The position numbers and the translations under genes are program-made. The notes below the pieces were generated by a model. That model was not told the DNA's origin. It was given only the letters and a program-made list of their open reading frames with translations, and did no database searches. From Candidatus Levybacteria bacterium RIFCSPLOWO2_01_FULL_38_21 (GTDB taxonomy: Bacteria > Patescibacteriota > Microgenomatia > Levybacterales > UBA12049): 64,000 nucleotides of DNA. The stretch is taken from NCBI GenBank assembly GCA_001782475.1, contig MFOT01000024.1:42578-106577 (forward strand), given 5' to 3'. Shown here piece after piece: positions 3,138 through 56,953 of the stretch; positions within the stretch are counted from its first letter, which is position 1, and each line of letters opens with the position of its first letter.

Positions 3138-3904
3138 GCAAGTATTGCTTTCGTCGATTTTTGATTTGTAACCAAAGTACTTTCTGAGTCTAATGTCCAG
3201 GCCCTACCATCAAGATCTAAAATTTCGCCGCCCGCTTCTTTGATAATGGACCATGCCGGGACAATTGCATAACGATCGGAATAATTATTTACCATTGCCT
3301 CAAGCCTTCCATGAGCCACATAGCAGATTGTTAATGCGACGGAACCGATGGCTCGTACAGTACATCTGCGACCAAGAGATGTAAACAAACGCACACCTTC
3401 CTCAATTTTTGCTTTACCCCTGCGCTTTTGCCAATCGACATTAATAAAAGCATGTTCGCCAAAAGGCCTTCGGGATACTGATATTTTTTTTCCGTTGCAA
3501 AAAGCACCTGTATGTTTTTGACCAATATATAGCTCGTCAAGCATTGGATCATATACGACTCCAAAAATTGGTTTTTTATTACGTATCAACCCCACCGCTA
3601 CCGCAAAGCCTGGTAGTCCATGGATAAAATTTCGTGTATTAGAAAGTGGATCGATATACCATTCGAACTCAGACGAGTTGGGCATTATGCCAGACTCCTC
3701 GCTGTAAACTGTATGGCTTGGATAAACAGCGGTAAGCGTTTTTATAATCAGTTTTTCAATCTGCGTATCAAAAGCGGTAACATAGCTTTGTTTTTCTTTT
3801 AGGGTATATCGTATCTTACTATCACAATTATTTCGAAGAAGAACACCTGCATCCCTAACAGCATCTATAACAGTCTTGTACATATATAAAAAAATCAGTG
3901 TCAA
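3128..3904 (-). CDS. inositol monophosphatase family phosphatase (IMPase / SuhB / CysQ-like)
   Basis: WYIDPLSNTRNF matches the WxIDPLDGT metal-binding motif; FGVVYDPMLDELY follows downstream. Start may instead be the MYKTV Met at 3883. Confidence 0.65.
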   Translation of the reverse strand: MTLIFLYMYKTVIDAVRDAGVLLRNNCDSKIRYTLKEKQSYVTAFDTQIEKLIIKTLTAVYPSHTVYSEESGIMPNSSEFEWYIDPLSNTRNFIHGLPGFAVAVGLIRNKKPIFGVVYDPMLDELYIGQKHTGAFCNGKKISVSRRPFGEHAFINVDWQKRRGKAKIEEGVRLFTSLGRRCTVRAIGSVALTICYVAHGRLEAMVNNYSDRYAIVPAWSIIKEAGGEILDLDGRAWTLDSESTLVTNQKSTKAILACI

Positions 3905-3956
3905 TTATACCAAATAGCACAAGGAAATGCGCGGATTCTAAAGCTGCAAAAGAACA

Positions 3957-3983
3957 TCAAGCTCGACTTCTTCCCCGGATATA
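3957..3983. repeat. 27-bp direct repeat, right copy
   Basis: Identical to 1014..1040. Confidence 0.85.
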
Positions 3984-4038
3984 CCTCCCCATAGCTTCGG
4001 TTCTTGACATTAGTCTTGATCTTGCCTAACATAAAAGA

Positions 4039-4758
4039 ATGGATACTAATCAGCTTCCTCAAGAACCACAAAAAAGGAAATTCAGCGGGCTATTGTTTTT
4101 GGAGGTTGGTTTAATTGAGGTATTCTCTGTTATTCTTGCACTGCTCCTGATTTTTGGAACCCTTAACTATTTTGGCATACTCCCCATCTCCGAATCCCTC
4201 CCCTTTCTTTCCTTTCTTCCGCAGAAACAAAAAACAATTACGAATAAAACTGTAAAAACCAGCACTCAATCAAAATCAAACAAGCAGTTGCCTATAGAGA
4301 TATTAAGAACCATCCCTGTCGTTGGCTGCCCAGTTGAACAAAATTTGTGTACGAATGGCGTAACTATTCCAGAATCTAAAGAAAATACCGCATCGCTTTC
4401 CGCAATCGCCTATAATTTAGAACAAGGGGCCACAGTCTCGGCTGTGATGAATGGTGATATAGAAATAAAAAATGAAAACATAAATGGACAAAAGCTGCTT
4501 ATATTAAGCATTATAAATAAATCAAGAAATATTAAGGTAAATTATGAATTTGAGATCAATTCATTCAGATATACAGCTTCTCAAGCTAATAAGACTGAGC
4601 AAGGAAAGGTCTTGGGGAATATAGTTGGTGAAGACACGATCAATCAATTTGGCAATAAATTTAATCTGATCTTTTCTGTCCAAAACCTAAATGCTCTCCA
4701 GTACCTCAAAATAAAACCTTCCCCAGACGGTAAAGGAATCCTCAACACTGGATTTTAA
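4039..4758 (+). CDS. hypothetical membrane-anchored protein
   Basis: N-terminal hydrophobic helix LLFLEVGLIEVFSVILALLLIFGTL; no catalytic motif. Confidence 0.35.
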   Translation: MDTNQLPQEPQKRKFSGLLFLEVGLIEVFSVILALLLIFGTLNYFGILPISESLPFLSFLPQKQKTITNKTVKTSTQSKSNKQLPIEILRTIPVVGCPVEQNLCTNGVTIPESKENTASLSAIAYNLEQGATVSAVMNGDIEIKNENINGQKLLILSIINKSRNIKVNYEFEINSFRYTASQANKTEQGKVLGNIVGEDTINQFGNKFNLIFSVQNLNALQYLKIKPSPDGKGILNTGF

Positions 4759-4919
4759 TTTTTAGTTCTTGACACAAATTTAGAATCCCATCTCTTGGAT
4801 AGTAGAATCGTACCAAAACACCCCTAGGGTATGCTCAAGAAAACTTCTTTAAAGTCTTACCGATGTGATCAGCCAGAACACTCCCTTGACTCACCCAAGA
4901 AACATGGTAAAATAATAGT

Positions 4920-5162
4920 ATGAATCAGACAATTACCGTATCTCAAGAAACAATCGAGGAAATTCTTACTCGTCTTGACAGACTCACTAGAGAAATAAAA
5001 GCTATTAGGACAAAACTTTTTGAAGAGGAACCGCCCTATGGAAGCGACGAGTGGTGGGAATGGTCTGATAAAAAATCGATCGAAGATTACAAAAAAGGTC
5101 GCTATACAGTGATTCGTTCAAAAAAAGAACTTAATGAATTTTTTAGTTCGTTAGGAAAATAA
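4920..5162 (+). CDS. putative antitoxin, partner of the RelE/ParE-like toxin
   Basis: 80-aa ORF; its stop lies 1 nt before the toxin gene start, the usual antitoxin-toxin gene order. Confidence 0.4.
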   Translation: MNQTITVSQETIEEILTRLDRLTREIKAIRTKLFEEEPPYGSDEWWEWSDKKSIEDYKKGRYTVIRSKKELNEFFSSLGK

Positions 5163-5163
5163 A

Positions 5164-5424
5164 GTGAAACAAATTCTTCTTACAAAAGGGACTGAGAGAT
5201 CTTTTAAACGGCTTCCAAAGAAGAATCAAGAAAAAACCAAGAAACAATTTGAACTTTTATTAGCCAATTATCGTCATCCTTCGCTTCGAGCACGCAAAAT
5301 GCCCGGAGCAAACTATTTCGAGGCAAGAATTGATATACACTACCGTTTTACTTTTAGTTTAGTGAGGAAAGGAATTTTAGTTCTGACTATTGGTCCCCAC
5401 GATGAAGGGTTAGGGAAAAAGTGA
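5164..5424 (+). CDS. RelE/ParE-family type II toxin
   Basis: C-terminal RKMPGANYFEARIDIHYRFTFSLVRKGILVLTIGPHDE follows the RelE/ParE pattern (G..L.e.R...YRiiy...d..v.vl.igHR). Confidence 0.6.
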   Translation: MKQILLTKGTERSFKRLPKKNQEKTKKQFELLLANYRHPSLRARKMPGANYFEARIDIHYRFTFSLVRKGILVLTIGPHDEGLGKK

Positions 5425-5433
5425 TTTAAACCT

Positions 5434-5462
5434 TGACAAAGACTATGAGATAGGATAGAATC
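5434..5462 (+). promoter_or_regulatory. sigma-70-like promoter (TTGACA, 17 nt, TAGAAT)
   Basis: cTTGACAaagactatgagataggaTAGAATcg lies 12 nt upstream of the ATG at 5474. Confidence 0.4.
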
Positions 5463-5473
5463 GCTTTTGTATT

Positions 5474-6262
5474 ATGGGGAATAGAATTGAAAAATCTCCA
5501 AGAAGAATGTCGAGAAGAAGGTTATTGAAGTTAGGAGGCTTGGCGGCTGGTGCTGTCGTCGCTAGCGCTTTGCTTGAAGCCTGCGGAGGCGGAGCTGAAA
5601 CGACAACTCCAAACCCAACTGCAGATGTATTGAAAACGGAAAGCCCGATGCCATCGGCAACCCCTATGGCAACCCAAGCTGCCGAATCCCCCATCCCAAC
5701 TGCTATTAGCACAGCGAAGCCGCCAGAACCAACCCCAACCCCAACAGAAGTATCTAAAGCCCCAGTCAATTGTGAAGTTCTCCCCCAGGAATTCTGCTCC
5801 CAGGGAAAAAGAATAACAATGGAACTTCAAGGGGAAAAACATGAGTACATTGCATTCAATTTACCCCCAGGTACTCCTATTCTTGCTCGATTTGATGGTC
5901 TTTTAGACAAAATCGAAGAGAGCGGTGATCCATTTTCCGGCTTTAGCGCAGTACTGACGCCTGATAACTATAGATCCTTTGATATTGCTAGAGGAGATAT
6001 CCATTTCGACGATATGATACAAAGGCAAGTAAGGCAGGGCGATGTAATTGGCTATGTGGGTGATGCAGGCATCAAGAATTTTGACTACAATGTTCTTTAC
6101 CTAATTAGTACTGCAAGTCCTGACGGACCGATTATTGATGAAGGAAAAATGAAGGAATTGTTTCCCGAGGCATTTGAAAAGGAGAGTGTAGAGATTACGT
6201 ATAATGGCCCTGTTAACCCCCCAGTATCCTACGACTATTCCTCTACCCCTCCAGGCCAATAA
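5474..6262 (+). CDS. Tat-signal lipoprotein with a degenerate (non-catalytic) LytM/M23 peptidase domain
   Basis: SRRRLLKLGGLAAGAVVASALLEAC is a twin-arginine signal with lipobox; a PT-rich linker follows; the C-terminal domain (HEYIAFNLPPGTPILARFDG ... QGDVIGYVGDAGIKNFDYNVLYL) aligns to the M23 HxxxD and G.IGyvGsTG..HLHFE motifs but lacks the catalytic Asp and His residues. Confidence 0.5.
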   Translation: MGNRIEKSPRRMSRRRLLKLGGLAAGAVVASALLEACGGGAETTTPNPTADVLKTESPMPSATPMATQAAESPIPTAISTAKPPEPTPTPTEVSKAPVNCEVLPQEFCSQGKRITMELQGEKHEYIAFNLPPGTPILARFDGLLDKIEESGDPFSGFSAVLTPDNYRSFDIARGDIHFDDMIQRQVRQGDVIGYVGDAGIKNFDYNVLYLISTASPDGPIIDEGKMKELFPEAFEKESVEITYNGPVNPPVSYDYSSTPPGQ

Positions 6263-6337
6263 AGCTAAGTGTAAGTAATTGTAGTAAAATTATTACTCCC
6301 CTTGACATATAATCTTTGCATATAGTAACTTTAGATT

Positions 6338-6910
6338 ATGGGGGTTTTATTTAAAAAACCAATTTTTTGGATTGGAATAATTATTGTATTAATAATTGGG
6401 CTTCTAATCCTTGTTCTCCAATCTACTAGTCCTAAGAATCTCAAAAATATTTCTCCAAAAATATCTGAGAAATCAAAATCAGGGCCAAAGCCCGGAACCT
6501 GCCTTATCTTAGAACAAAAATTCTGCTCCCAGGAAAAAAGAATAACAATAGAAGTTCAAGGGTTAAAACATGAGTACATTGCCTTCAATCTGCCCCCTGG
6601 CACTCCTCTTTTTGCTCGATTTGATGGTCTTTTAGACAAAACTAAAGAGAGTGATGCTCCATTTTCTGATTTTAGCGCGTCACTAACGTTTAATAATTAC
6701 AAATCTTTTGATATTATCAGAGGAGATTTTAGTTTCGACAGCATGCTACAGAAAAACGTAAAACAAGGCGAGATAATTGGCTATGTGGGCGATACAGGCG
6801 TCAAAGACTTTGGTTACAACGTTCTTTATCTAATTACTACTGCCGGCCCTAACGGACCGATTATTGATGAGGGAAAAATGAAAGAGTTATTTCCCAAGGT
6901 TCTAAAGTAA
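6338..6910 (+). CDS. membrane-anchored paralog with a degenerate LytM/M23 domain
   Basis: N-terminal TM helix; its C-terminal ~150 aa are near-colinear with 5474..6262 (HEYIAFNLPPGTPLFARFDG ... QGEIIGYVGDTGVKDFGYNVLYL). Confidence 0.5.
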   Translation: MGVLFKKPIFWIGIIIVLIIGLLILVLQSTSPKNLKNISPKISEKSKSGPKPGTCLILEQKFCSQEKRITIEVQGLKHEYIAFNLPPGTPLFARFDGLLDKTKESDAPFSDFSASLTFNNYKSFDIIRGDFSFDSMLQKNVKQGEIIGYVGDTGVKDFGYNVLYLITTAGPNGPIIDEGKMKELFPKVLK

Positions 6911-6911
6911 T

Positions 6912-9900
6912 ATGAAGTTAAGCAAATTTTTGGCTGTCCCCGCAGTAACTTTTCTATTTTTTGTCTTCTTATCTGGCAGTGCCTATGCTTCTTTCTCTTA
7001 CTCATACGATTCCTCTCCGCCCTCCGCCGACCAGGTAGCTGATTCATTCTGCGCTGGCTCCATCCAGACTTGTTGGAACAGTTCGTCTGTTGGTGTAACA
7101 GATTGTGGAACTGCTTGTACCGGCGGTAACGCCTGGGAAAAGCATGTATATTCAGGCTGTTATTATGTAGCTTTTTTAGGTTATAAGGCATGGCTTCCAT
7201 TTGCATCCGCTACCTGCTCAACCGGGGATAAGTGTACGAGTAGTTGGCCTTATCTAAACGCTGGATATTGCGATTGCTCAGTCGGAGGCATATATAAAAC
7301 CTGCTGTGATACTACGACAGGAAGAGCTGATGGGGCTTGCGTGGCATATGCTGTTGATACCACAAATCCTCCATGGGAAGGTTATTGTCCTGCGGGAACA
7401 GCGACGGAGTTCTGTGGCTTCGGAGGCTATCCTGCCTGCGGAGATGCGGCTTGCGCAAAGTACGCCCCCCCTCCAGATTGTAATACTGGGGTTTCTTGTT
7501 CTGGAGCCTGCAGCGCGCCGGCAAATACCTGCTCTACAAATAATGGAACGCAAACAAGCTGTGTCTATACAGCCTACAGCGGAGGAGGATCCTGCACTCA
7601 AACAACTGCTCCCAACCAACAATGCACAGTTAATAATTGTTCTGCGGGATATACTTGCCAGAGTGGCATTTGTACGGCAGGACCGAATCCTCCTACTGCC
7701 GCAATCAACGGACCCACTTCCATTACACTTGGCCAATCAGGCAGCTTTACTGCAACCGCCAACCAAGACTCAACCAGTTCGCTTGCATCCGGAGAAATTT
7801 ATTGGTCGCCAACCGGTTCTCAATCCTGGACTCTTCTTAATCCCGTAGCTGCGCTTTCGGGCTCAACTGGGTCATTTTCCAGAACGTGGACTCCGACTGC
7901 TACCGGTACTTACTACGTAGTTGTCAACGCTTACAATGTAAATGGCCAACAATGCACAGGTAATCCTTTCGGGATTGATCCCGGCTGGGTTAATTGCGGA
8001 TCAAACGATGCTGTAACTGTCACAGTCACAACTGTAGCAGCAACCCCAACCCCAACTCCCACACCTGCCTCTTCATGCAATGCTGCGTGCATTGCAAGTG
8101 GTTATTATTATGGAATATGCCAAGGTGCATGCGGTGGAAACTATGATGGATCGCCTAGTCAATATGAATGTGCAAGTAATATTGGTGCACCTCTTTGCTG
8201 TTGTTCACGTGTGCCAGCCACTCCAACTCCAACCCCGACTGGCGCTCCAACTCCCACTCCAACTCGAGCTCCCTCAACATACGACATTTCTGGTACTGTT
8301 TGGGTAGATACCAATGGGAATGGGTTTAAGGACATATTAGAAGATGGATTCCAGAGCGCTCGCATAACCATAACCGGCGGTGCTTTTAGGAATACAGACA
8401 ACTCTGGATTTTACCTTTTTTCAAGTCTAGCTTCCGGAACATATACAATTACTCTTACTGTACCTTCTGGCTATATCTTAACCACTTCAAATCCTGTCAC
8501 CAGAACCCTCCCGAACAATGCCACAGCTAATTTTGGGATACAACCCCTATCAACCATCTCTGGAACTGTATTTGTGGACACTAATGGGAGTGGGGCTAAG
8601 GACACAGGAGAACCGGGATACAGCGGGGCTACCCTAACCGGACCCGGCGGTGAGACTGATACTACAGGCGCCAGTGGATCTTACGGTTTTCCAGGTCTAG
8701 CTTCCGGAACCTATACAATTACTCTTACTGTACCTTCTGGCTATATCTTAACCACTTCAAATCCTGTCACCAGAACCCTCCCGCCCGATGCCACAGCTAA
8801 TTTTGGGATAAGATTCAACAAGCCAGACCTGGTTGTCTCAAATCTTAGTGTCCAGTCGGTTGCCGCAGGCCCGATAACACCAAGAGATGGCAGTAGCTTT
8901 GATACCAATGGCGGCTCGGGCGCAAGTTGGTCAAATCCAACCTATGCTCAGACTTCCAATAGCCAGCGCGCCTCTGTTTCACTGGACGGTAATCCCAGTT
9001 CCCGTTATCTTAAGGCTCAAGGCTTTGGTTTTAACATTCTACCCGGTTCTACCATCAATGGTATTCTCGTTGAGGTAGAACGCAGGGCCGAAGAAGAAGG
9101 CTGGGGCGGCAATCCCAGAATAGTAGATGATGTCATCAGACTTGTCAAAGCCGATGGAACAATTGGCGGAAGTAACAGAGCAGGCAGTAGTTACTGGCCA
9201 GAATCGGATGCTTATACAAGCTATGGCTCAGGTACCTACCTGTGGGTCCTAACCTGGACACCGGCCGATATCAATAATTCCAATTTTGGGGTGGCAGTCT
9301 CGGCCAGGAATGAGGGTGATGACGCAATTGCATACATTGACCATATCCGTATCACGGTGTATTTAGCTTCCGAAGCAGGAGAGTCGTTAGAAGCAGTCTT
9401 TACCTTAAAAAATAACAGTTCTATTACCACGCCACCCGGGGTTAATTTTAGGATTGATCTTTGGCCGGACCGCACCAGCTCTCCCAATCTTGGAGAACTA
9501 AGTGATTGTACCCCGACCCCTTGTAAGATAGACCAAACAGAAATGGCCGCCAATGAACAGAGATCCGTGACTATACCTTTCACCGCTCCCTTAACCGCTG
9601 GAACAAAGACGGTCCAAATTTTGGCTGATTCGCCGGACGTCATTGACGAAATGGAGGAGTTAACTAATAATAGGATATCTAAAATCTACTTTGTTACTGC
9701 ACCCCCAACATACACAATTTCTGGAAATGTATTTGTAGACGCCGATAAAAATCGGCTCAAGAATGGAGGGGAGACAAACTACACAGGCGCAATCACTATT
9801 TCCTCAACAGAAGGAACTGTATCTGCTCCCTCTGGTACTGGGGTTTACACTGTAGACGGTTTAATAGAAGGAACATATACAATTTCTTACACAGATCTTC

Positions 9901-10904
9901 CTTCTGGATATCAACTAACATATCCTCTAAACGGTCCCCCGCCCTCTTTTACGGTTACGGTTGGGGCATCTTGTTCTGTTGGCGGTTCAAACAGCGCAAC
10001 TTGCGGTGGAGGAAGCATTTCAAATCTTAACTTTGGCATAACCAATTCAAATCCATGGATCCAGTCAACCTGTACAGATATAAGATTTGATACTGGCTTT
10101 GATGACCCCATACCAATAACCGCTGATCCTGTTCTCTGTGGCGGGCCAAATGCATCTATCAATGCATCTATTTCAGTCGTTTGCACAACTCCGGGAATCA
10201 TTATGTCTGGAGACAGCTCATATTCCTTTGGTCAAGGACAGGCCTCATCTACGAACTGGGTCGTGGGGGGAACTACCTATCCGGAAGTTTTTGCTCCCAC
10301 AAGAGGAGGCGGCTTTGCAACTTCTTACGCATATGTCTTATCTGTTATAAAACAAGCAGGTCTAACACCAACGGATCTTTCAACCGTATGTACCCTTTCA
10401 AACTGCACTTTACCCGCAGGATTTTCTCACGGTCTTTACAAGGCAAATTCTGATCTCTACCTTAACGCTTTTACATTCCTAGCCTCATCAAATTATGTAA
10501 TCTTGGTCAACGGAAATCTCTACATTCGCGGTAAAATCCTCGTACCAAATGGTTCAACCGCAACCTTTATTGTCTCTGGCAACATTTATGTAGACCAAAC
10601 CGTAGGAGAAGCAGTTATTTCATCAACAACCCCTGATATTGAAGGCTTCTATAGTACGGATAAGAGTTTTATAATCCAGGGTACAAACGACTGCATGGTG
10701 GGAGCGGATTTACGACTAAATGTTGCCGGCACAATTGTAGTTAATGCAGGACTTACGGGCGGATCATTCCAAAACTTAAGAGATCTTTGCGGAGGAAATC
10801 TTTCCTGTCCTGTATTTTCGATATCAGAAAGGCCAGATTTTATTCTAAATGCTCCGGAGGTAATAAAAAGACAGAATGCAATTTATCAGGAAGTAGCACC
10901 CTAG
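6912..10904 (+). CDS. giant secreted/cell-surface protein (1330 aa) with Cys-rich N-domain, PT linkers and tandem Cna-B/SdrD-B-like repeats
   Basis: Signal peptide MKLSKFLAVPAVTFLFFVFLSGSAYAS; about 40 Cys in the first 400 aa; linkers ATPTPTPTPASS and PATPTPTPTGAPTPTPT; two near-identical repeats ...SGTYTITLTVPSGYILTTSNPVTRTLP..ATANFGI... (DNA 8404-8530 and 8665-8800). Confidence 0.6.
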   Translation: MKLSKFLAVPAVTFLFFVFLSGSAYASFSYSYDSSPPSADQVADSFCAGSIQTCWNSSSVGVTDCGTACTGGNAWEKHVYSGCYYVAFLGYKAWLPFASATCSTGDKCTSSWPYLNAGYCDCSVGGIYKTCCDTTTGRADGACVAYAVDTTNPPWEGYCPAGTATEFCGFGGYPACGDAACAKYAPPPDCNTGVSCSGACSAPANTCSTNNGTQTSCVYTAYSGGGSCTQTTAPNQQCTVNNCSAGYTCQSGICTAGPNPPTAAINGPTSITLGQSGSFTATANQDSTSSLASGEIYWSPTGSQSWTLLNPVAALSGSTGSFSRTWTPTATGTYYVVVNAYNVNGQQCTGNPFGIDPGWVNCGSNDAVTVTVTTVAATPTPTPTPASSCNAACIASGYYYGICQGACGGNYDGSPSQYECASNIGAPLCCCSRVPATPTPTPTGAPTPTPTRAPSTYDISGTVWVDTNGNGFKDILEDGFQSARITITGGAFRNTDNSGFYLFSSLASGTYTITLTVPSGYILTTSNPVTRTLPNNATANFGIQPLSTISGTVFVDTNGSGAKDTGEPGYSGATLTGPGGETDTTGASGSYGFPGLASGTYTITLTVPSGYILTTSNPVTRTLPPDATANFGIRFNKPDLVVSNLSVQSVAAGPITPRDGSSFDTNGGSGASWSNPTYAQTSNSQRASVSLDGNPSSRYLKAQGFGFNILPGSTINGILVEVERRAEEEGWGGNPRIVDDVIRLVKADGTIGGSNRAGSSYWPESDAYTSYGSGTYLWVLTWTPADINNSNFGVAVSARNEGDDAIAYIDHIRITVYLASEAGESLEAVFTLKNNSSITTPPGVNFRIDLWPDRTSSPNLGELSDCTPTPCKIDQTEMAANEQRSVTIPFTAPLTAGTKTVQILADSPDVIDEMEELTNNRISKIYFVTAPPTYTISGNVFVDADKNRLKNGGETNYTGAITISSTEGTVSAPSGTGVYTVDGLIEGTYTISYTDLPSGYQLTYPLNGPPPSFTVTVGASCSVGGSNSATCGGGSISNLNFGITNSNPWIQSTCTDIRFDTGFDDPIPITADPVLCGGPNASINASISVVCTTPGIIMSGDSSYSFGQGQASSTNWVVGGTTYPEVFAPTRGGGFATSYAYVLSVIKQAGLTPTDLSTVCTLSNCTLPAGFSHGLYKANSDLYLNAFTFLASSNYVILVNGNLYIRGKILVPNGSTATFIVSGNIYVDQTVGEAVISSTTPDIEGFYSTDKSFIIQGTNDCMVGADLRLNVAGTIVVNAGLTGGSFQNLRDLCGGNLSCPVFSISERPDFILNAPEVIKRQNAIYQEVAP

Positions 10905-10916
10905 CGCAAAGCGCTA

Positions 10917-10952
10917 AGGAAATTCTAAACACTAAATCCGAAATCCTAAACA
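10917..10952. repeat. left terminal inverted repeat of a MITE-like element (AAATCCTAAA-type arm)
   Basis: ttctaaacactaaatccgaaatcctaaac is the reverse complement of the arm at 55592-55622 and is inverted relative to 11322-11385. Confidence 0.5.
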
Positions 10953-10959
10953 AATAATA

Positions 10960-11319
10960 ATGGACCAGATCACAAATAATAAACGGTATGACCTAGAAGA
11001 ACGATGCTTAAATTTTGCCAAGAGGGCCAATAAGTATATAAACCATTTACCCAAGACTATTACTAATATCGAAAATGGAAAACAATTAGCAAGATCCGTA
11101 GGATCTGTTGGAGCAAATTATATAGAAGCAAATGAAGCGCTAAGCAAAAAAGATTTCATAATGAGAGCTAAAATTTGCAAGAAGGAAGCTAAAGAAAGCA
11201 GATTTTGGTTTACTCTTTCAGAACCTTTGCAAGGAGAACAAAAAGAAAAAGATCTGCTCATTCAGGAAGCAACAGAACTTATGAAAATCTTTGGATCGAT
11301 TCTTGAAAAATCTAAATAG
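10960..11319 (+). CDS. four helix bundle protein (TIGR02436-like; 23S rRNA intervening-sequence protein family)
   Basis: RSVGSVGANYIEANEALSKKDFIMRAKICKKEAKESRFWFTL is the hallmark of this family. Confidence 0.7.
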   Translation: MDQITNNKRYDLEERCLNFAKRANKYINHLPKTITNIENGKQLARSVGSVGANYIEANEALSKKDFIMRAKICKKEAKESRFWFTLSEPLQGEQKEKDLLIQEATELMKIFGSILEKSK

Positions 11320-11321
11320 TT

Positions 11322-11385
11322 CTGGGATTTGAGGATTTAGAATTTAAATATTGTTTAGTATTTAGATATTAGAATTTAGGATTTA
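11322..11385. repeat. right terminal inverted repeat of the MITE-like element
   Basis: gggatttgaggatttagaatttaaatattgtttagtatttagatattagaatttaggattta matches arms at 55497-55530 and 55590-55622. Confidence 0.5.
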
Positions 11386-12408
11386 ATTAAGATAAGTGAT
11401 TTCTTCCTCTAGTTCCAGCTTGTATTTTTCTTTTATAATCTCTTTTATTTCTCCAATTAAACTTCTTACATCTTCCGATGTCGCGTTGCCAAGATTGACA
11501 ATAAAATTAGGATGCTTTTCGGAGACCATTGCGCCTCCTTGTCTTTTCCCTTTTAAACCTGCTACTGCTAAAAGTTTAGCTGTTGGCAAAATAGGAAAAG
11601 GATCATCTTTTATCGAACTACTTAGTCCTCCTAATAATTTTTGGGGAACTTTTTCGATTGGGATGTTTTTGAAAATACTTCCTATATTTGGGTATTCTAG
11701 AGGATGTCTTTCTTTCCGATAATTGATCTTTTTCTCGATCTGTCTTTTAATTAAATCTTTATTGCCCCCTTGAAGTTTTAATTCCACTGAGATTATAATT
11801 TCACTTTTCCCCTCCCCGTCTTTAAAAATACTTGATCTATACCCAAAATTGCACTCTGAGTTTTTTCTTTTTCTAACCTCGTAGGTTGCGAGATTACCAA
11901 CCTCGTAGGTTGAGAGACTTTCGACTTCGTAAGCACTATCTTTTATTTCCCCTTTAAATGCTCCAGCATTCCCCCTGACAGCGCCGCCGATTGTGCCAGG
12001 AAGACCTCCTGCCCACTCAAGTCCGGATAGACAATTTTGAACACAAAAATTGAGCAAATCCTCCAATAAAACACCGGCGCCGGCTAAAATCTTAATATTG
12101 CCAGCCTCGCCAACCTCGCAGGTTTCGTGCGTGCAACCTGCGAGGTTACAATAACCCAATATCCTGATCTCTTTTATTTTATTGTGAATAACAAGTCCAT
12201 TAAATCCTTTATCGCTTACTAAGACATTCGTCCCCCCACCGAAGATAAACATATCCTGCGAAGGTGATTTTTTTGAGATTTTTTTCCATTGTTTAAGGCC
12301 TTCGATTAACTCCTCAACGCTTGAAACCTTAAGAAGATACTTGGCTCTGCCCCCGATTTTGAAATTGTTGAGGTCTTTTAAAGAGATATCTTTTTGAATC
12401 GAAACCAT
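11383..12408 (-). CDS. murB: UDP-N-acetylenolpyruvoylglucosamine reductase
   Basis: FAD-binding N-terminus (GGRAKYLL...FGGGTNVLV) and MurB C-terminal domain; contains in-frame palindromic insertions (YEVESLSTYEVGNLATYEV; CTHETCEVGEAG). Confidence 0.75.
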   Translation of the reverse strand: MVSIQKDISLKDLNNFKIGGRAKYLLKVSSVEELIEGLKQWKKISKKSPSQDMFIFGGGTNVLVSDKGFNGLVIHNKIKEIRILGYCNLAGCTHETCEVGEAGNIKILAGAGVLLEDLLNFCVQNCLSGLEWAGGLPGTIGGAVRGNAGAFKGEIKDSAYEVESLSTYEVGNLATYEVRKRKNSECNFGYRSSIFKDGEGKSEIIISVELKLQGGNKDLIKRQIEKKINYRKERHPLEYPNIGSIFKNIPIEKVPQKLLGGLSSSIKDDPFPILPTAKLLAVAGLKGKRQGGAMVSEKHPNFIVNLGNATSEDVRSLIGEIKEIIKEKYKLELEEEITYLN

Positions 12409-19093: not shown

Positions 19094-19157
19094 TTCTTAC
19101 AATCAAGTCAAGTTAATATCTTTTATCAATTGAGTTAAATTGCTGACCGCAAACGGA

Positions 19158-19192
19158 GGCAATCCCAGTTCAAACGGGGTTGCCTTTTTTTT
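19158..19192 (+). terminator. intrinsic terminator/attenuator hairpin in the 5' leader of the ugd-like gene
   Basis: ggcaatccc-agttcaaac-ggggttgcc forms a 9-bp stem followed by TTTTTTTT. It lies about 60 nt downstream of the promoter and 14 nt upstream of the ATG at 19206. Confidence 0.5.
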
Positions 19193-19205
19193 GCAGGCTT
19201 TATCG

Positions 19206-20456
19206 ATGAATTACAAAAAGATTTTATCTGAAAAAATTAAAACAAGAAAAGCTGTTGTTGGCATTATTGGAATTGGGTACGTCGGTGGAGCACTTGCTCA
19301 AGGAGCTGCTACTGCAGGATTTCGGGTTTTTGGATTCACCAGAAGTACGACCCGCGCTAATCATGTTAACAAACAAAAAATCCATAATTATACCGCTACT
19401 ACCGACATTACTCTACTCTCAAAATGCAGTATCATTTGTATCTGTGTTCCTACTCCGATACACGAGAACAAGTCACCCGATCTTGAACCTCTTCAGGACG
19501 CGCTTTCGAAGACAGCCGAATATTTAAAACCCGGATCACTTGTTATTATCGAGAGCACCGTAGCACCCGGTACCACCCGAAATATTGCTCTTCCAATGCT
19601 TCAGACGTCAGGGTTAAAAAAAGAAGAAGAAGAGTTTTTTCTATCTTTTTCTCCTGAGCGAGTCGATCCGGGAAATAAAAAATATACTATATGTAATACT
19701 CCAAAAGTAGTAGCCGGTTTAAGCAACACATCCAGTGATCTTGCCTGTAAGTTTTTTCAGAGTTTTGTTGAAAAGGTAGTCCCCGTTTCCTCTATTGAGG
19801 CAGCCGAAATGTCCAAGATTCTTGAGAATACGTTCCGACTTGTCAATATAAGCTTTATTAATGAACTTGTTCCATACGCAAAAAGTCTGGGTGTTGATAT
19901 ACATGAAGTGATAAATGTGGCAGCCACAAAACCATATGGATTTCTGCCGCATTATCCCGGTCCTGGGGTTGGCGGACACTGTATCCCAGTTGATCCATAT
20001 TACCTGCTTTCGGATGCGCGAAAACGGGGAATCTCACTTACCATAGTTGAAGACGCAGGTAGAGTGAATGAAGAACAACCAAAAAAAGTAGTCACCAAAG
20101 CTCTTGAGATTTTGAAAAAAACAAACGGACACAAGGCAACTTACAAGGTTTTGCTTCTCGGGCTTACATATAAAAAAGACATCGGCGATCAACGCGAATC
20201 AGCATCGCTTAAAATTTGGAAACTCTTGGAAGAAAAGAATGTCAATGTTTCTTACCACGACCCATATGTACCTTCATGGAACGACCACGTATCTGTGGAG
20301 CTGACCGATAAAACGCTTTCTGAAAATGACGTTATTATTATCACGACAGACCATGAGAATATCGACTATGCAAAACTTACCTCGCATCAAAAGCCTATCC
20401 TTGATACACGTAATGTACTGCGCAAAAACGGTTTTCCGTTTGTGTATGGAATATGA
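19206..20456 (+). CDS. nucleotide-sugar dehydrogenase (UDP-glucose / UDP-ManNAc dehydrogenase family)
   Basis: VVGIIGIGYVGGALA Rossmann motif; GPGVGGHCIPVDPYYL holds the catalytic Cys. The ORF-track start at 19140 lies inside the leader; 19206 is the more likely start. Confidence 0.75.
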   Translation: MNYKKILSEKIKTRKAVVGIIGIGYVGGALAQGAATAGFRVFGFTRSTTRANHVNKQKIHNYTATTDITLLSKCSIICICVPTPIHENKSPDLEPLQDALSKTAEYLKPGSLVIIESTVAPGTTRNIALPMLQTSGLKKEEEEFFLSFSPERVDPGNKKYTICNTPKVVAGLSNTSSDLACKFFQSFVEKVVPVSSIEAAEMSKILENTFRLVNISFINELVPYAKSLGVDIHEVINVAATKPYGFLPHYPGPGVGGHCIPVDPYYLLSDARKRGISLTIVEDAGRVNEEQPKKVVTKALEILKKTNGHKATYKVLLLGLTYKKDIGDQRESASLKIWKLLEEKNVNVSYHDPYVPSWNDHVSVELTDKTLSENDVIIITTDHENIDYAKLTSHQKPILDTRNVLRKNGFPFVYGI

Positions 20457-21394
20457 AACATGTTTTAGTAACAGGCGGCGCGGGTTTTATAGGCGCAAGT
20501 TTAGTTCGAAAGCTTCTTGAAAATGGCGATAAGGTTGTAGTAATTGATAATCTAATTACTTCAAACGGGGAAAGTATTAAACCGCTACTTAAAAATCCCA
20601 ATTTCAAATTTATCAAACGCGACATAATAAAACCTTTGCCTTCATCAATCATCAATCATCAATCATCAATTGGGCATATCTTCCATCTTGCCTGTCCGAC
20701 CGGCGTTCCGAATCTCACAAAACTTGCCAGAGAAATGCTACTTACCTCCGCGATCGGAACAATGAATGTTTTAGAACTTGCCAGAAAACACAAGGCAAAG
20801 TTTATATTCACAAGTTCTTCTGAAGTTTATGGTGATCCCAAAGTTTTTCCGCAGAACGAAAACTATACAGGCAATGTCAGCTCTGTAGGTATTAGAAGTC
20901 CATATGAAGAAGGAAAAAGATTTGCCGAAAGTCTGATTATGACTTACGTTCGAAAATATAATTTGGATGCAAGAATTGTCCGGGTGTTTAATACCTACGG
21001 ACCCCTGATGTCTATTAACGATACGCGCGTTATTCCAAAATTCTTAAAACAAATTAGTAAAAACCAGCCTCTGACAGTTCAAGGAGATGGCAGGCAAACA
21101 AGAACATTTTGTTACGTTGACGATCTAATAAAAGGTTTAGTTCTTCTTATGGACAAGGGGGGGGAGGGCGAAGTTTATAATCTCGGGAGTAACAAAGAAA
21201 TAAGTATAAATACCCTGGCTGGGCTCATGATAAAAATTACAAAATCTAAAAGTAAAACAATAAATATTAGTCGTCCGTCTCATGACCACAACCGCCGTCT
21301 CCCCGACCTGAGAAAAGCAAACAAACTTAATTGGTACACTAAGGTAGGCCTTGATGAAGGTTTAGAAAGGACCGTACGATGGTTTGGGTTTTAG
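20453..21394 (+). CDS. NAD-dependent epimerase/dehydratase (UDP-glucuronate decarboxylase/UXS-like)
   Basis: VLVTGGAGFIGASLVRKL ... PYEEGKRFAE (YxxxK). Contains an in-frame heptanucleotide tandem repeat encoding SSIINHQSSIG. Confidence 0.65.
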   Translation: MKHVLVTGGAGFIGASLVRKLLENGDKVVVIDNLITSNGESIKPLLKNPNFKFIKRDIIKPLPSSIINHQSSIGHIFHLACPTGVPNLTKLAREMLLTSAIGTMNVLELARKHKAKFIFTSSSEVYGDPKVFPQNENYTGNVSSVGIRSPYEEGKRFAESLIMTYVRKYNLDARIVRVFNTYGPLMSINDTRVIPKFLKQISKNQPLTVQGDGRQTRTFCYVDDLIKGLVLLMDKGGEGEVYNLGSNKEISINTLAGLMIKITKSKSKTINISRPSHDHNRRLPDLRKANKLNWYTKVGLDEGLERTVRWFGF

Positions 21395-22602
21395 CGTTCC
21401 TTACGCTTGCAGGATATAATTTTTCTTTTTGGCTAATTGTAGGAATAGCTAGATTTTTGTTCGAGAGAATCCCGCATTCTGATAAAAGAAAGAGGGGTCG
21501 GCCGTCAAAACCAATTTTGCCAAAAGACGTTGCGGCAGTCATTCCCGCGCATAATGAACAACGAACGATCGCAAAAGCAATAAGATCTCTTAGGAAGATT
21601 TTACCTGTGGGAAATATTTATGTTGCTAGCGACTACTCAACCGATAAGACGGTTAAAATTGCCAGATCTTTTAAAGTCAAGGTTTTAGACATTAGACCAA
21701 ACAGAGGAAAAGCAAGAGCATTGGTTTACATAATGAAACGCTATCATCTATTAAGCCGCTTCAAAGCAATAATTATTCACGACGCGGACGTTGAGGTTAG
21801 TAAAGATTATTTGAAAAATGCATTGCCATTTTTAAAAGACCAAAACGTAGCGGCGGTAGCAACTCACGGAGTAACAAGACTTAAGAACTACAAAGTGCTT
21901 GAGAGATTTTATATTACTTATAGGTTGAGACTTTGGAGAATTCTACAATACGGAATGCGTTTTGGTCAGACATGGAAATACACCAATGTAACTTATATCA
22001 TCCCCGGCAGTTTATCTCTCTATAGAACGAGGGTTCTTAAGAAACTTAAAATTGATGCACCTGATCTTATTATTGAAGATTTTAATATGACTTTTGAGGT
22101 GCGCAGAAAAAAACTTGGAATAATTGCCTATAATCCATCAATTTTTGGAGTTCATCAGGACCCTTACACATTTAGAGATTATACTAAACAATTAAGACGC
22201 TGGAATTTAGGTTTTTGGCAGACAGTTAAGAAAAACGGCATTTGGCCAAGTCTTTTCTGGCTTTCTATGGGGTCTTTTCTCATAGAACTTCTTCTTTATA
22301 CGTTTTTCATATTGTCCGTGCCAATTTTAATATTTATTTTCATTCTTCATTCCTTCAATCCGATAAGCATTCCCCTTGTATCATCTTACTTAACATTCCT
22401 TGATCTTCTCATTGGACTATTCCTTATGGATTATGTCCTTACTATAATTGCAGCGGCTGCGGAGAGAAAACCTGAAATGCTTATTTATGGTCTTGGCTTT
22501 TTCTTTCTTCGCTATGTTGATGCTATCATCTATACATATACTCTGCCTTTGGCATTTCTGGTTAAATCGAAGGGCACGTGGAGCAGTCCGGAGAGAAAGT
22601 AA
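21379..22602 (+). CDS. processive family-2 glycosyltransferase (NodC/HasA/PgaC/CesA-like, QxxRW)
   Basis: D, DAD, IEDFNMT (ED) and QLRRW motifs; one N-terminal and about four C-terminal TM helices. Confidence 0.7.
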   Translation: MVWVLAFLTLAGYNFSFWLIVGIARFLFERIPHSDKRKRGRPSKPILPKDVAAVIPAHNEQRTIAKAIRSLRKILPVGNIYVASDYSTDKTVKIARSFKVKVLDIRPNRGKARALVYIMKRYHLLSRFKAIIIHDADVEVSKDYLKNALPFLKDQNVAAVATHGVTRLKNYKVLERFYITYRLRLWRILQYGMRFGQTWKYTNVTYIIPGSLSLYRTRVLKKLKIDAPDLIIEDFNMTFEVRRKKLGIIAYNPSIFGVHQDPYTFRDYTKQLRRWNLGFWQTVKKNGIWPSLFWLSMGSFLIELLLYTFFILSVPILIFIFILHSFNPISIPLVSSYLTFLDLLIGLFLMDYVLTIIAAAAERKPEMLIYGLGFFFLRYVDAIIYTYTLPLAFLVKSKGTWSSPERK

Positions 22603-23667
22603 TTAGAAAAGCAATTTAAGGGCTTTTGTAATGGTAGAAATCTCATCTTCAGTTAAGCTTGGGTGGATAGGAAGAGCAAGGGTCGTATTTGATATATCCT
22701 CTGCATTTGGAAAATCTTTCTTAGGCAATTTCAGGTAACGATGTAAAAGCTGATAGTTTTCAATGGGAATGACTGTTGAGATTCCTTTTTTTGCAAGATT
22801 TAATTTAAACGAATCTCTGGTTTTTTTATCTTTGAATTTAATTATAAAGCGATAGTGATTTAAATTTTTATCCTCTTTTTTTGGCCAAAACTCAATTTCT
22901 TTTTGTTTTTTAAGCACAGGGGTGTATTTCGAAGCAATATATCTTCTTTTCTTAAATAAATTATCAATCCTTTTAAACTGCACATTGCCAATAGCGGCGG
23001 CAAAATCTGTCAGCTGATAATTATATCTTACTCTGTAATTCTTACGACGATCATAATGGATCAGATCTCTGACGATTTTGTAATATTTTTTATTATTAGT
23101 TACAAGCATTCCTCCATGACCCGTGGTTATTACTTTTGTTGCATAAAATGAGAAGATGGTTATGTCTCCGAATGATCCCAGAGGTTTACCTTTATAGAAA
23201 CCTCCAAGAGAGTGCGCACAGTCTTCGACTATCAGAAGTTTAAATTTCTTGATCTCATCGATTTTTGCCGGAAATCCAAGAACATGAGGAACAATAATTG
23301 CTTTTGTTTTCTTATTAATTTTTTTCTTAATCTCCAGAGGATCAATTGTGAACCAATTTTTTTCAATATCTACGACTACAGGAGCAGCACCCATATAATA
23401 TATTGCGTTAAGAAGTGCAGTACAGACATAAGTTGGAACTATAACCTCATCTCCTTTTTCAACCCCGAGTGCGATTAGACTTAGATGAAGAGCGGCAGAA
23501 CCTGAACTTGTCGCAACGGCATATTTTCCTTTGACATAATTTTTAATATTGTTCTCAAGTTTCCTAGCTTCCTTATTTGGTATAAGCCACTTACTCCTCA
23601 GAGTCCTTGCAACTGCTTTTATTTCTTGCTCATCAAGGTAAGGCGTATTATGTAAAATCTGTTTCAT
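22603..23667 (-). CDS. DegT/DnrJ/EryC1/StrS-family PLP-dependent sugar aminotransferase
   Basis: KYAVATSSGSAALHLSLIALGV...DEVIVPTYVC...; the PLP lysine region is conserved. Confidence 0.8.
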   Translation of the reverse strand: MKQILHNTPYLDEQEIKAVARTLRSKWLIPNKEARKLENNIKNYVKGKYAVATSSGSAALHLSLIALGVEKGDEVIVPTYVCTALLNAIYYMGAAPVVVDIEKNWFTIDPLEIKKKINKKTKAIIVPHVLGFPAKIDEIKKFKLLIVEDCAHSLGGFYKGKPLGSFGDITIFSFYATKVITTGHGGMLVTNNKKYYKIVRDLIHYDRRKNYRVRYNYQLTDFAAAIGNVQFKRIDNLFKKRRYIASKYTPVLKKQKEIEFWPKKEDKNLNHYRFIIKFKDKKTRDSFKLNLAKKGISTVIPIENYQLLHRYLKLPKKDFPNAEDISNTTLALPIHPSLTEDEISTITKALKLLF

Positions 23668-23671
23668 AAAA

Positions 23672-25015
23672 CTAATGCTTCATTCCTCCGCTTAGAAAAA
23701 GAAGTGCATTTAATCGCATGCCTTCATTGGTAGAATAATCAGGGCTTCTTAGTGTAATTGTATTTTCCAAAAGATGTTTTTGATATCCTGGTTTAGTGGA
23801 GATAACCGCCGCCATTGCTGCTGTGGCGACAAAGGCTACCTCGACGTATTCAGTTTCCAGTGGGGTACCGGTTTTAGGATCATAACCTCCTCGGATTTGA
23901 TCTGGATTTTCTGTCTCAAAAAATGCATTAATCTGCTGTAGTTGAGCTATCGCGTCTTTATCTTCATACCATAGCGCTGCCATCCCTTGTCTCCATGGGA
24001 TACGAATTGCTTCATATCCGAATTTATCGTTGTTCCCTCCTCTTTGAGGCACCATACTTCCATCTGCAGTTGTCCAATCTGGCGGCAGAAGAGTTTGGCG
24101 TTTTGCTTTGATTGCAGCAAAAACTTGCCGTCCGGCCTCTGTGACGCGATCCCAATCGGTATTTCCTGTGTACTCTTTAAACAACTGATAATATGCAGGG
24201 GAATAGTATGAAGGGTTTGTTTCATAAAATCCTCCCCAATCATTCCCGCCTTTTAAAACATATGACCCCGGCTCAACGTCATGCTTTAAAATATTTTCAA
24301 TCATTCTCGTTGCGTCATCTCTGTATCCACCCCATATGTTATCAGCAATAATAAGTCCATAAGCTATATCCAGATCAGCGTCTGCTGCGGAACTATCATC
24401 AGCCGGAGTATTATCTGCATTTATTTCATTGCTCATAAGCCCATCCGAATTTAAATGAGACTTGGCATATTTCCATAACGAGTCAAATGTAGGCTTATCT
24501 TCAGCATTAACTGCGTATATCATACTGTATGCAACAACTTCTGAATTTGAATTTCTTTTATCTTTGTCCCATATCGCACGAAGTTCATCAGCGTCTCCTA
24601 ATCCCTCATTTCTAACCCAGGCGCTTTTCCATTCTTCGTATCCTTTTTGAAAAGCTTCTTTTGCAATTTGTCGTATTTCGGGATCAATTGAGATACCTTC
24701 TACTGGCGCTGTAGTAGTGGATTCTGTTACAGTTGGCGTTGTTGGGGGCCCTGCGGTGATAGTTGGTTCTGTTGTGGCTGACTCTGTTGTAATTGAGGTT
24801 GCTGTTGGATCTACTATTGGCTCCGCTGAAGGAATAACAGATACAGTGTCAACATTTCGCGTTGGGGCTGAACTACCTCCATTACTTGAAGAGCAAGCCT
24901 TCAGTGCTAAATCCAAGCCAGCGATCCCTGTTAATTTAAAAGCTCCTCTTCTAGAAATAACTGGACCATTTAACAAATGATCTAATTTTTCTGCTAATCG
25001 TTCAATTCTATCCAT
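23672..25015 (-). CDS. Tat-lipoprotein glycoside hydrolase family 8 (endoglucanase / chitosanase / xylanase family)
   Basis: AADADLDIAYGLIIADNIWGG matches the GH8 signature ATDADxDIAyAL..A...WG; Tat signal plus lipobox (SRRGAFKLTGIAGLDLALKAC); PT-rich linker. Confidence 0.6.
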   Translation of the reverse strand: MDRIERLAEKLDHLLNGPVISRRGAFKLTGIAGLDLALKACSSSNGGSSAPTRNVDTVSVIPSAEPIVDPTATSITTESATTEPTITAGPPTTPTVTESTTTAPVEGISIDPEIRQIAKEAFQKGYEEWKSAWVRNEGLGDADELRAIWDKDKRNSNSEVVAYSMIYAVNAEDKPTFDSLWKYAKSHLNSDGLMSNEINADNTPADDSSAADADLDIAYGLIIADNIWGGYRDDATRMIENILKHDVEPGSYVLKGGNDWGGFYETNPSYYSPAYYQLFKEYTGNTDWDRVTEAGRQVFAAIKAKRQTLLPPDWTTADGSMVPQRGGNNDKFGYEAIRIPWRQGMAALWYEDKDAIAQLQQINAFFETENPDQIRGGYDPKTGTPLETEYVEVAFVATAAMAAVISTKPGYQKHLLENTITLRSPDYSTNEGMRLNALLFLSGGMKH

Positions 25016-25023
25016 AATTAAAA

Positions 25024-26160
25024 CTAATTCTTAAGCTTACCTACTTCTTCCCAGACTCTTGGGTCTTCTCCGCCCAATCTCCAGAAGGCAAGGCCTCCGA
25101 CTCTAAATTCCTTTGCCAAATCAAAACGGGCTGAAGCACTCTCTGAATTTTCGAACCATATTACATACTTTTGTCCACTTTGTAAATACTCAAGGTAAGG
25201 GCTTTTTGAAGGACTGTCCCATTTAGTCTCCGCTCCATTTTCTTGTGCGGTAGATAAAATATCGAAGAACTTAAGGTCGTCACTTATCCCTGCATAAGAT
25301 TTGTCTGATCCGACTCGCCATTTAACCCCATCAAGTCCTATGCCAAGAAAGACCTTCTCAGGCGGCACTCCTACTTCGCCAATTGCGTAACTTAGCACTC
25401 TTCTTATCCACCCAAATTCCCCGATTGAGCCGGGTTCTGAGAATAGTTCGTGCTGGGTATAGGTCATAAAATACATTTGATCTGCCGCTTTAGAAATCCG
25501 TAATAAATCCTGAGCATGTGCACCGTTGTTTTCCTGGGGGTCATTTTCTGAAGTCTTAGGGTGGATAGCAACTCCCAATACTTTCCCCTTTTTATGTAAG
25601 CTTTTCGAAAGTTCCTCAATAAATAGACTAAAGTTTTCCCTTTCTGATACCTTCAATGCTTCATAATCAATATCAATTCCATCTAAATTATTTTCATCTA
25701 CTAGAGTGAGCAAATCATTTATGTGCTTGACTCTTTTCTCTTGAGTTGAGATAACTCTGGCAACCCTGCTATCATCGAAACCCTCTCCTTCTCCATAGTC
25801 TACTAAATTCGCTACAACTGCCAACACTTTTACATTGTGCGCGTGAGCAAAATCTATTATTGATTTGTCGACAATTGTCGATTTATAAGTTCTGAGATTT
25901 CCGCTTGCATCGACTCTGTACCAAAAAAACGAAACAAAATCAAAAGCAGATGTGTTCTTTGAGAAACTCTCAAACGCAGCTTCCTGATCCCAAAAAGGAA
26001 TCCATCCAATAACCTTCGGGTTAAATCTTAAAACTTGCTGGCTTGGCACTTGTTTTTCTTTATAAAATTTATGTCTGTTGTATGACATAGCAATTAATAA
26101 CGCAGTCCAAACTAAAAAAAATACTGCGGAAAATAATAAAAACTTTCTAAATCGCATCAA
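25024..26160 (-). CDS. membrane-anchored glycoside hydrolase family 18 (chitinase-like)
   Basis: LDGIDIDYE matches the GH18 DxxDxDxE catalytic motif; N-terminal TM helix. Confidence 0.6.
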   Translation of the reverse strand: MMRFRKFLLFSAVFFLVWTALLIAMSYNRHKFYKEKQVPSQQVLRFNPKVIGWIPFWDQEAAFESFSKNTSAFDFVSFFWYRVDASGNLRTYKSTIVDKSIIDFAHAHNVKVLAVVANLVDYGEGEGFDDSRVARVISTQEKRVKHINDLLTLVDENNLDGIDIDYEALKVSERENFSLFIEELSKSLHKKGKVLGVAIHPKTSENDPQENNGAHAQDLLRISKAADQMYFMTYTQHELFSEPGSIGEFGWIRRVLSYAIGEVGVPPEKVFLGIGLDGVKWRVGSDKSYAGISDDLKFFDILSTAQENGAETKWDSPSKSPYLEYLQSGQKYVIWFENSESASARFDLAKEFRVGGLAFWRLGGEDPRVWEEVGKLKN

Positions 26161-56849: not shown

Positions 56850-56953
56850 AGCAAAAGTTTAACACCAAAACTAAGAATTTAAAAGTAGTAAATTTGATAC
56901 CGCTTGACAAGTTAATAAAAATACCCTACTGTGTTTATAGAACTTATCTAAAA

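Follow-up and report, generated by a model that had tools for sequence, protein, structure and literature searches.

We report that a window of 64,000 nucleotides (positions 42,578 to 106,577 of contig MFOT01000024.1, assembly GCA_001782475.1) from Candidatus Levybacteria bacterium RIFCSPLOWO2_01_FULL_38_21 encodes three membrane-anchored paralogs, ORF3, ORF1 and ORF2, each carrying a degenerate LytM-like (M23) domain, ahead of a giant secreted adhesin-like protein (Table 1). A preliminary description of the sequence had noted ORF1 and ORF2 as tandem paralogs with a catalytically dead LytM domain, one a Tat-lipoprotein and one TM-anchored, directly upstream of a 1330-aa surface protein. This observation holds, since both ORFs, their sequence motifs and the adjoining giant gene are present as described, with two corrections: the Tat signal scores below threshold and the number of paralogs is three, not two.

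Table 1. Positions of the genes and sequence features in the 64,000-nt window.
Position	Strand	Feature	Remarks
4039..4758	+	ORF3, third and distant paralog (239 aa)	N-terminal TM anchor (conserved ...LNYFGILPIS..LPFLSFLPQK), linker, CxxxxxxC motif, degenerate LytM-like domain (aa ~99-218, window 4333-4692); no His in the protein
5433..5461	+	Best sigma-70-like match of the region, possible promoter of ORF1-ORF2-giant	TTGACA-17-TAGAAT, 11/12; 12 nt upstream of the ORF1 ATG
5474..6262	+	ORF1, lipoprotein-type paralog (262 aa)
5474..5584	+	ORF1 signal region	RR-containing n-region (SRRRLLKLGG), hydrophobic core, lipobox LLEA-C37
5585..5761	+	ORF1 P/T/S/A-rich low-complexity stalk (aa 38-96)	Length and sequence vary among homologs
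5762..6181	+	ORF1 degenerate LytM/M23-fold domain (aa 97-236)	Includes C100/C108, H123, A127, N206, L208
6338..6910	+	ORF2, TM-type paralog (190 aa)	TM helix aa 8-28 (6359-6421), short basic linker, degenerate LytM domain
6491..6907	+	ORF2 degenerate LytM/M23-fold domain (aa 52-190)	Includes C55/C63, H78, A82, I127, G129-D130, Y160-N161, L163, F185-P186
6912..10904	+	Giant secreted adhesin-like protein (1330 aa)	Starts 1 nt after the ORF2 stop (TAAtATG); signal peptide (..SGSAYA|S), Cys-rich N-terminal domain, SdrD_B/SpaA Ig-like repeats, C-terminal beta-solenoid; no LPXTG motif or C-terminal TM
7068..7421	+	Conserved Cys-rich N-terminal domain of the giant protein (aa 53-170)	...CSTGDKC..PYLNAG.CDC..G.IYKTCC; no PDB sequence match
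9627..10901	+	C-terminal 425 aa of the giant protein	One SdrD-B-like Ig domain plus a DUF3494/ice-binding-protein-like beta-solenoid

The C-terminal ~140 aa of ORF1 and ORF2 align without gaps at 66% identity (BLASTP E=7e-76) and at 80.8% nucleotide identity over 381 nt, and both contain the motifs KH78EYIA82FNLPPGTP, DG97, GYVGDTG154 and Y160N161VLYL (ORF2 numbering; add 45 for ORF1). ORF2 is 100% identical to hypothetical protein A3B44_00260 of Candidatus Levybacteria bacterium RIFCSPLOWO2_01_FULL_38, which places the window in a CPR/Patescibacteria genome. ORF1 begins MGNRIEKSPRRMSRRRLLKLGG...LLEAC37GGG, i.e. a twin-arginine-like motif and, judged by inspection, a lipobox Cys. The lipobox Cys followed by GGG/GxG is conserved in subfamily homologs, which carry canonical IAC/VAC/AAC/VGC-GGG, and an S-R-R-x-[FL] motif recurs in members at the related loci L001, L003, L013 and L027 (loci recovered by homology are numbered L001 onwards). 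However, the ORF1 signal is not recognised by curated Tat models (Pfam TAT_signal 11.9 bits, cutoff 22.7; TIGR01409 13.6 bits, cutoff 16.7), and no Tat translocase gene was found in the window. ORF3 was identified with a family HMM (E=6e-11), while BLASTP against ORF2 gave only E=0.004. The support for the possible promoter is weak because the total number of promoter-like sites equals the shuffle expectation, and the promoter/terminator scan as a whole was no better than shuffles. An Rfam search of positions 3800-11500 returned nothing.

To determine whether the domain belongs to the M23/LytM fold we compared it with Pfam, the PDB and a predicted structure. As single sequences ORF1 and ORF2 score only 17-17.5 bits against Pfam Peptidase_M23 (PF01551; gathering score 28.7) and hit M23 chains in the PDB marginally (EnpA E=0.002). 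A profile of five sequences improved the match (LytU 5kqb E=2e-5) and a profile of 63 sequences made it significant (5kqb E=3.4e-8, LytM 9e-5, DipM 0.002), while 21 of the 63 relatives hit PF01551 at E<=0.1, the best at 2e-6. AlphaFold2 run on the 63-sequence alignment gave a confident model (mean pLDDT 89.9, with the domain mostly above 90), showing only a TM helix, a linker and the LytM domain, and a Foldseek search of the PDB with this model returned only M23/LytM structures in the top 50. The fold assignment is therefore secure, and a non-M23 fold, which had been set beforehand as an outcome that would overturn the preliminary description, was not obtained.

The residues required for catalysis are absent. 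HMM alignments place H78 of ORF2 on LytM H210, A82 on D214 and I127 on the catalytic H260, while the EnpA alignment and the in/out alternation of strand 162-170 place N161 and L163 on the HxH histidines (N161 on the equivalent of LytM H291), in agreement with the preliminary description, which had read HxxxD as replaced by HEYIAFN and HLHFE by NVLYL. Across 140 family domains position 78 is His in only 6, position 82 is G/A (G92/A29), position 161 is N/D/T/K and position 163 is L/I/V/A. Independent of any alignment, the ORF2 domain has one histidine and that of ORF1 two, while 68 of the 140 family domains have none and 47 have one. Since the M23 site uses four histidines (two as Zn ligands, two catalytic) and an aspartate, a shifted register cannot restore it. 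The conserved positions comprise the M23 structural glycines and prolines (L85-P86, G88, P90, G97, G144, G154), a family-specific invariant cysteine pair (C55, C63; Cx7C) in a short element before the first strand, and G129-D130, G159-Y160-N161 (where HxH used to be) and a C-terminal L..LFP helix. D130, Y160 and N161 sit where the active site used to be, which we infer to point to a retained binding site.

An exhaustive HMMER search of 1.84 billion cluster representatives (50% identity) found 288 proteins at E<=1e-3 and 135 at E<=1e-10, which shows that these are not chance ORFs. The 150 that were listed are 137-428 aa long (median 218 aa), with the domain at or near the C-terminus in nearly all of them, and most have an N-terminal TM helix or a lipobox with a PT-rich linker. 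The source names available, including those from cluster memberships and a further homolog search, which added little, are Levybacteria, "Patescibacteria group" and one Terrybacteria; three TPA bins are labelled Gammaproteobacteria but their gene content looks like the others. Neither Pfam nor NCBIfam has a model that covers the family or, for NCBIfam, any of the three paralogs, and literature searches found no paper describing it and no description of LytM-like proteins in Patescibacteria.

For the analysis of genomic context, related loci were collected with a narrow alignment, which biases them towards relatives of this window. The usual gene order in the related Levybacteria-type loci is ORF3-type, (often) a ParE-like TA pair, lipoprotein-type, (often) a 331-355-aa HExxH protein, TM-type, giant secreted protein and a four-helix-bundle protein. 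The ORF3 subtype occupies the same upstream position in L001, L003, L004, L005, L013, L014, L024 and L027. The HExxH protein of these sister cassettes has no Pfam or PDB match and no homolog in the window. In 16 of 18 informative loci, i.e. the window and 15 further distinct loci (L002-L007, L010, L012, L013, L015, L020, L021, L024, L027 and L029), the stop of the TM-type gene is 4 nt or less from, or overlaps, the start of a large signal-peptide protein of 585-1602 aa where complete (several are cut by contig ends). At least six of these loci have flanks unrelated to the MurB/HtrA/S41 neighbourhood of the window, although synteny may partly reflect shared ancestry among Levybacteria. The two exceptions are L018/L019, which is followed by a 283-aa lipoprotein, and the Terrybacteria locus L025/L026, where large CARDB/PA14 proteins lie 0.3-1 kb further downstream, after a type IV pilus assembly cluster. 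Type IV pilus genes were also seen at L015.

Most of the giants share the Cys-rich N-terminal domain (it was found in the downstream giants of L002, L003, L004, L005, L010, L012, L013 and L027), and the full-length giants of the closest loci also share a ~400-aa C-terminal module, while the repeats between these two parts vary. We considered whether the giant protein of the window carries a hydrolase domain that the degenerate LytM proteins activate, but rejected this because its C-terminal module is an Ig domain plus an ice-binding-like beta-solenoid and the rest, apart from the unassigned Cys-rich N-terminal domain, consists of SdrD_B/SpaA repeats, so that in the parts that could be assigned the folds are adhesin-like and not enzymatic. 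It looks like an adhesin with no obvious anchor. We also looked for an amidase, LysM, FtsEX or Tat component among about 60 ORFs of the window scanned with Pfam (several of which have no Pfam hit) and found none.

The LytM domain diverges rapidly. Between genomes the TM-type domain is only 32-49% identical, compared to 54-68% for MurB, and its own N-terminal anchor and linker can be far more conserved (window versus L027: anchor 74%, domain 32%). Within a genome the lipoprotein-type and TM-type domains are often much closer to each other than to any ortholog, with amino-acid identities of 91% (L024), 90% (L004), 87% (L027), 68% (window) and 62% (L003). At the DNA level the values are 99.5% over 372 nt (L024), 94.7% (L027), 87.8% (L004), 80.8% (window), 78%, 67% and 65%, and the similar tract is confined to the domain. 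This graded series indicates repeated gene conversion or domain replacement, although gene conversion between nearby repeats can be neutral. Moreover, L029, a 1059-nt metagenomic contig from another sample, is ~100% identical to window positions 6140-6499 (98% over 6080-6139), covering the end of ORF1, the spacer and the ORF2 anchor up to just past the Cx7C motif, whereupon identity drops to 40-62% through the rest of ORF2 and into a different giant-gene 5' end. The breakpoint, at about 6500-6540, lies next to a conserved motif and could be an assembly chimera; if it is not, the ORF2 domain and the giant gene are exchanged together between near-identical strains. Pairwise divergence of the domain and of the N-terminal domain of the giant showed no obvious correlation in the 10 pairs available, which neither supports nor excludes interaction.

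Taken together, we regard it as shown that ORF3, ORF1 and ORF2 are extracytoplasmic proteins tethered by a TM anchor, a lipid anchor with a ~60-aa PT stalk and a TM anchor with a ~25-aa linker, respectively; that their only globular part is an M23/LytM-fold domain that has lost the Zn ligands and catalytic histidines, so that they cannot be lysostaphin-type peptidases; that they belong to an unannotated family, whose named members are all Patescibacteria, with its own sequence hallmarks; that the TM-type gene is translationally coupled to a giant secreted adhesin-like protein across different genomic neighbourhoods; and that the domain evolves as described above, with the replacement together with the start of the giant gene only apparent, from one contig. 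What they do is inferred, as is any binding to a partner or activation of a hydrolase. Our preferred reading, with a probability of roughly 0.45, is that the dead LytM domains are non-catalytic binding modules that use the former substrate groove to dock, assemble or retain the otherwise anchorless giant protein at the membrane/wall interface, most simply, and plausibly, by gripping its conserved, membrane-proximal, Cys-rich N-terminal domain. The same specificity would be presented at two tether lengths, and gene conversion would keep the two copies matched while the pair co-evolves with a strain-variable partner. A housekeeping amidase activator would not be expected to show the fast evolution, the homogenisation between copies and the apparent cassette swap described above. 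The interpretation in the preliminary description, i.e. degenerate LytM factors with a regulatory or scaffolding role at the cell envelope, is supported, although we favour docking or assembly over the EnvC/NlpD-type activation to which it compared them.

A further-reaching version, which the data do not exclude but which we consider unlikely, is that dead LytM domains displayed at two or three tether lengths are strain-specific membrane sockets for giant anchorless adhesins in some Patescibacteria lineages (chiefly Levybacteria). Socket and adhesin would co-evolve and be exchanged together as one hypervariable cassette, gene conversion would keep the sockets matched, and the cassette would thereby set the surface or host-attachment specificity of these ultra-small, presumably episymbiotic cells. 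If so, this would be a new use of the LytM fold and a new anchoring principle for surface proteins in a sortase-independent monoderm envelope.

Among the alternatives, the one that survives best, though doubtful, is that the domains are EnvC/NlpD/ActS/DipM-type regulators that bind and activate a peptidoglycan hydrolase encoded elsewhere, either an Amidase_3 enzyme or the HExxH protein of sister cassettes, to serve cell separation or to open the wall locally so that the giant protein can be inserted. The HExxH protein in related cassettes keeps such a model alive, but the gene is absent here, no LysM, coiled-coil, FtsEX or amidase was found in the window, and fast, strain-variable evolution is not what we would expect for a partner of conserved housekeeping enzymes. 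Less likely, the domains could be peptidoglycan-binding tethers or spacers whose dead groove still binds stem peptides or cross-bridges and that simply link the membrane to the wall at defined distances, independent of the giant protein. The LytM groove is a peptide-binding site in active relatives, the three anchors have different linker lengths and a conserved polar patch (D130, Y160, N161) lies at the former active site; however, peptidoglycan chemistry is conserved, so fast divergence and strain-level replacement are hard to explain, and the coupling to the giant gene is not accounted for. Similarly unlikely are surface-exposed decoys or variable antigens under diversifying selection from phages or hosts, with no specific partner and linked to the giant gene only by a shared hypervariable surface island. 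Fast evolution, gene conversion, the mosaic allele and the TA modules and other mobile-looking genes inside or around the cassette would fit, while the strong conservation of structural and family-specific residues across 140 domains and of gene order and start/stop overlap across lineages argues against it. Residual peptidase activity through a non-canonical metal site or another mechanism is very improbable, since although H78/H123 aligns with the first Zn ligand and D130 and N161 are conserved, H78 is rare in the family, the Asp ligand is Gly/Ala and the HxH positions are replaced.

Degenerate LytM domains are a known theme and the fold assignment alone is ordinary. What goes beyond it is an unannotated family of at least 288 clusters, its tight and recurrent coupling to giant adhesin-like genes, the unusual evolution of the domain, and giant proteins with no recognisable anchor. 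How CPR bacteria, which are largely uncultivated, display their huge surface proteins and attach to partners is an open question, and a two-component "socket + adhesin" provides a testable hypothesis as well as markers for comparative genomics of host specificity.

Compared with known systems, SpoIIQ of Bacillus subtilis (PDB 3uz0/3tuf) and Csd2 are precedents for dead LytM domains that work by holding a protein. ORF2 has the TM anchor plus dead LytM architecture of SpoIIQ, with partner binding here only inferred from translational coupling and co-replacement, but the partner of SpoIIQ is SpoIIIAH, a YscJ/FliF-type ring protein made by the other cell, and no such domain was found in the window or among the neighbours of related loci; the partner proposed here is a co-translated giant adhesin, and there is no sequence relationship beyond the fold (10-11% identity). 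The EnvC/NlpD/ActS/DipM activators (PDB 4bh5, 8c0j, 7qrl; PMC8360153, PMC5533458) also have a degenerate LytM domain, but the proteins here have no LysM domain and no coiled-coil/FtsX-binding domain, no amidase was found nearby, the domain is fast-evolving and strain-variable, and the gene is coupled to an adhesin gene rather than to division genes. Csd2 of the Helicobacter pylori Csd1-Csd2 heterodimer (PDB 5j1l; PMC5053510) pairs with an active M23 paralog, while the family HMM finds only three copies in the window, which all lack the catalytic residues, and no active M23 protein is in the window. PrgK of Gram-positive conjugative T4SS (LytM domain, PDB 8s0u) also carries SLT and CHAP hydrolase domains and sits in a T4SS operon, neither of which applies here. 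The active lysostaphin-type M23 peptidases (LytM 2b0p, lysostaphin 4lxc, EnpA 6smk, LytU 5kqb) have the same fold, are the closest at the sequence-profile level and share the structural motifs LP.GTP, DG and G.IGY.G.TG, but in the proteins studied here HxxxD and HxH are absent and there is an extra N-terminal Cx7C element and a conserved C-terminal LFP helix. The proteins can therefore not be filed as orthologues of EnvC/NlpD, SpoIIQ or Csd2 and are best described as an uncharacterised degenerate LytM family, apparently restricted to Patescibacteria, with its own motifs, a conserved link to giant adhesins and concerted, cassette-like evolution.

Between ORF3, the distant TM-anchored LytM-like paralog, and ORF1, the lipoprotein-type paralog, a small two-gene module is inserted, and the same pair is present at the same position in the related loci L002 and L027/L028. 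There the second gene has a weak ParE_toxin Pfam hit, while the window copies gave no Pfam or NCBIfam hit; the module is probably a ParE/RelE-type toxin-antitoxin pair embedded in the cassette. Moreover, sister cassettes in L002, L003, L013 and L027 encode a membrane-anchored protein with an HExxH motif (AHEFAHL, THEFGHL or AHEFGHL) between the lipoprotein-type and TM-type LytM-like genes. This protein has no Pfam or PDB match and no homolog in the window, and it may be a metallopeptidase partner or a processing enzyme. At the other end, the giant gene is immediately followed by a gene for a four-helix-bundle protein (Pfam 23S_rRNA_IVP, TIGR02436), and the same gene follows the giant gene in L002 and L024, and in L003 on the opposite strand; it may belong to the cassette.

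Coordinates of the features in the window and in related loci
Locus	Position	Strand	Feature
Window	4920-5162	+	Two-gene module, 80-aa protein
Window	5164-5424	+	Two-gene module, 86-aa protein
L002	207-711		The same two-gene pair
L002	1548-2615		HExxH protein (331-355 aa across the four loci)
L003	5669-6685		HExxH protein
L013	4602-5657		HExxH protein
L027	3594-4589		HExxH protein
Window	about 6500-6540		Identity break with L029 (compared over window 6080-7140)
Window	10960-11319	+	Four-helix-bundle protein
Window	19140-27540		Sugar-modification and glycosyltransferase cluster
Window	23672-26160	-	GH8 and GH18 glycoside hydrolases
Window	56894-60294	+	Second surface-protein cluster: dockerin-containing protein (244 aa), CARDB protein (636 aa), cohesin protein (201 aa)
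Window	61586-61657	-	tRNA
Window	63316-63851	-	LAGLIDADG endonuclease ORF (171 aa) overlapping an Rfam group II intron D1-D4 match (63773-63851)

Comparison of the window with L029, a contig from another sample, revealed a sharp break where the identity drops from ~100% to 40-62%, just after the Cx7C motif of ORF2, the TM-type paralog. This represents either a recombination breakpoint that swaps the LytM domain and giant-gene allele between strains, or a metagenome assembly chimera.

The second surface-protein cluster of the window is positioned next to dCTP deaminase and thymidylate kinase genes. In L006/L021/L022 the syntenic neighbourhood contains a single LytM-like gene that overlaps the gene for a 645-758-aa secreted protein, followed by that for a 1058-aa SdrD_B/dockerin protein, while the window's copy of this locus has no LytM-like gene. 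In two separate lineages the LytM-like genes are located just downstream of type IV pilus genes: in L015/L016/L023 these lie upstream of the LytM-like pair, with pilin-like GFTLIEM proteins and a prepilin-peptidase-like gene in L015, and in the Terrybacteria locus (L025/L026) they include PilM_2 with neighbours in L025. This may be chance or a functional link between pili, giant adhesins and the LytM-like proteins.

The glycoside hydrolases, which lie next to the sugar-modification and glycosyltransferase cluster, are the only wall- or polysaccharide-active hydrolases seen in the window, where no peptidoglycan amidase was found. Finally, at the edge of the window the LAGLIDADG endonuclease ORF overlaps the group II intron match (38.2 bits vs gathering 35); group II introns carrying LAGLIDADG rather than reverse-transcriptase ORFs are uncommon in bacteria.
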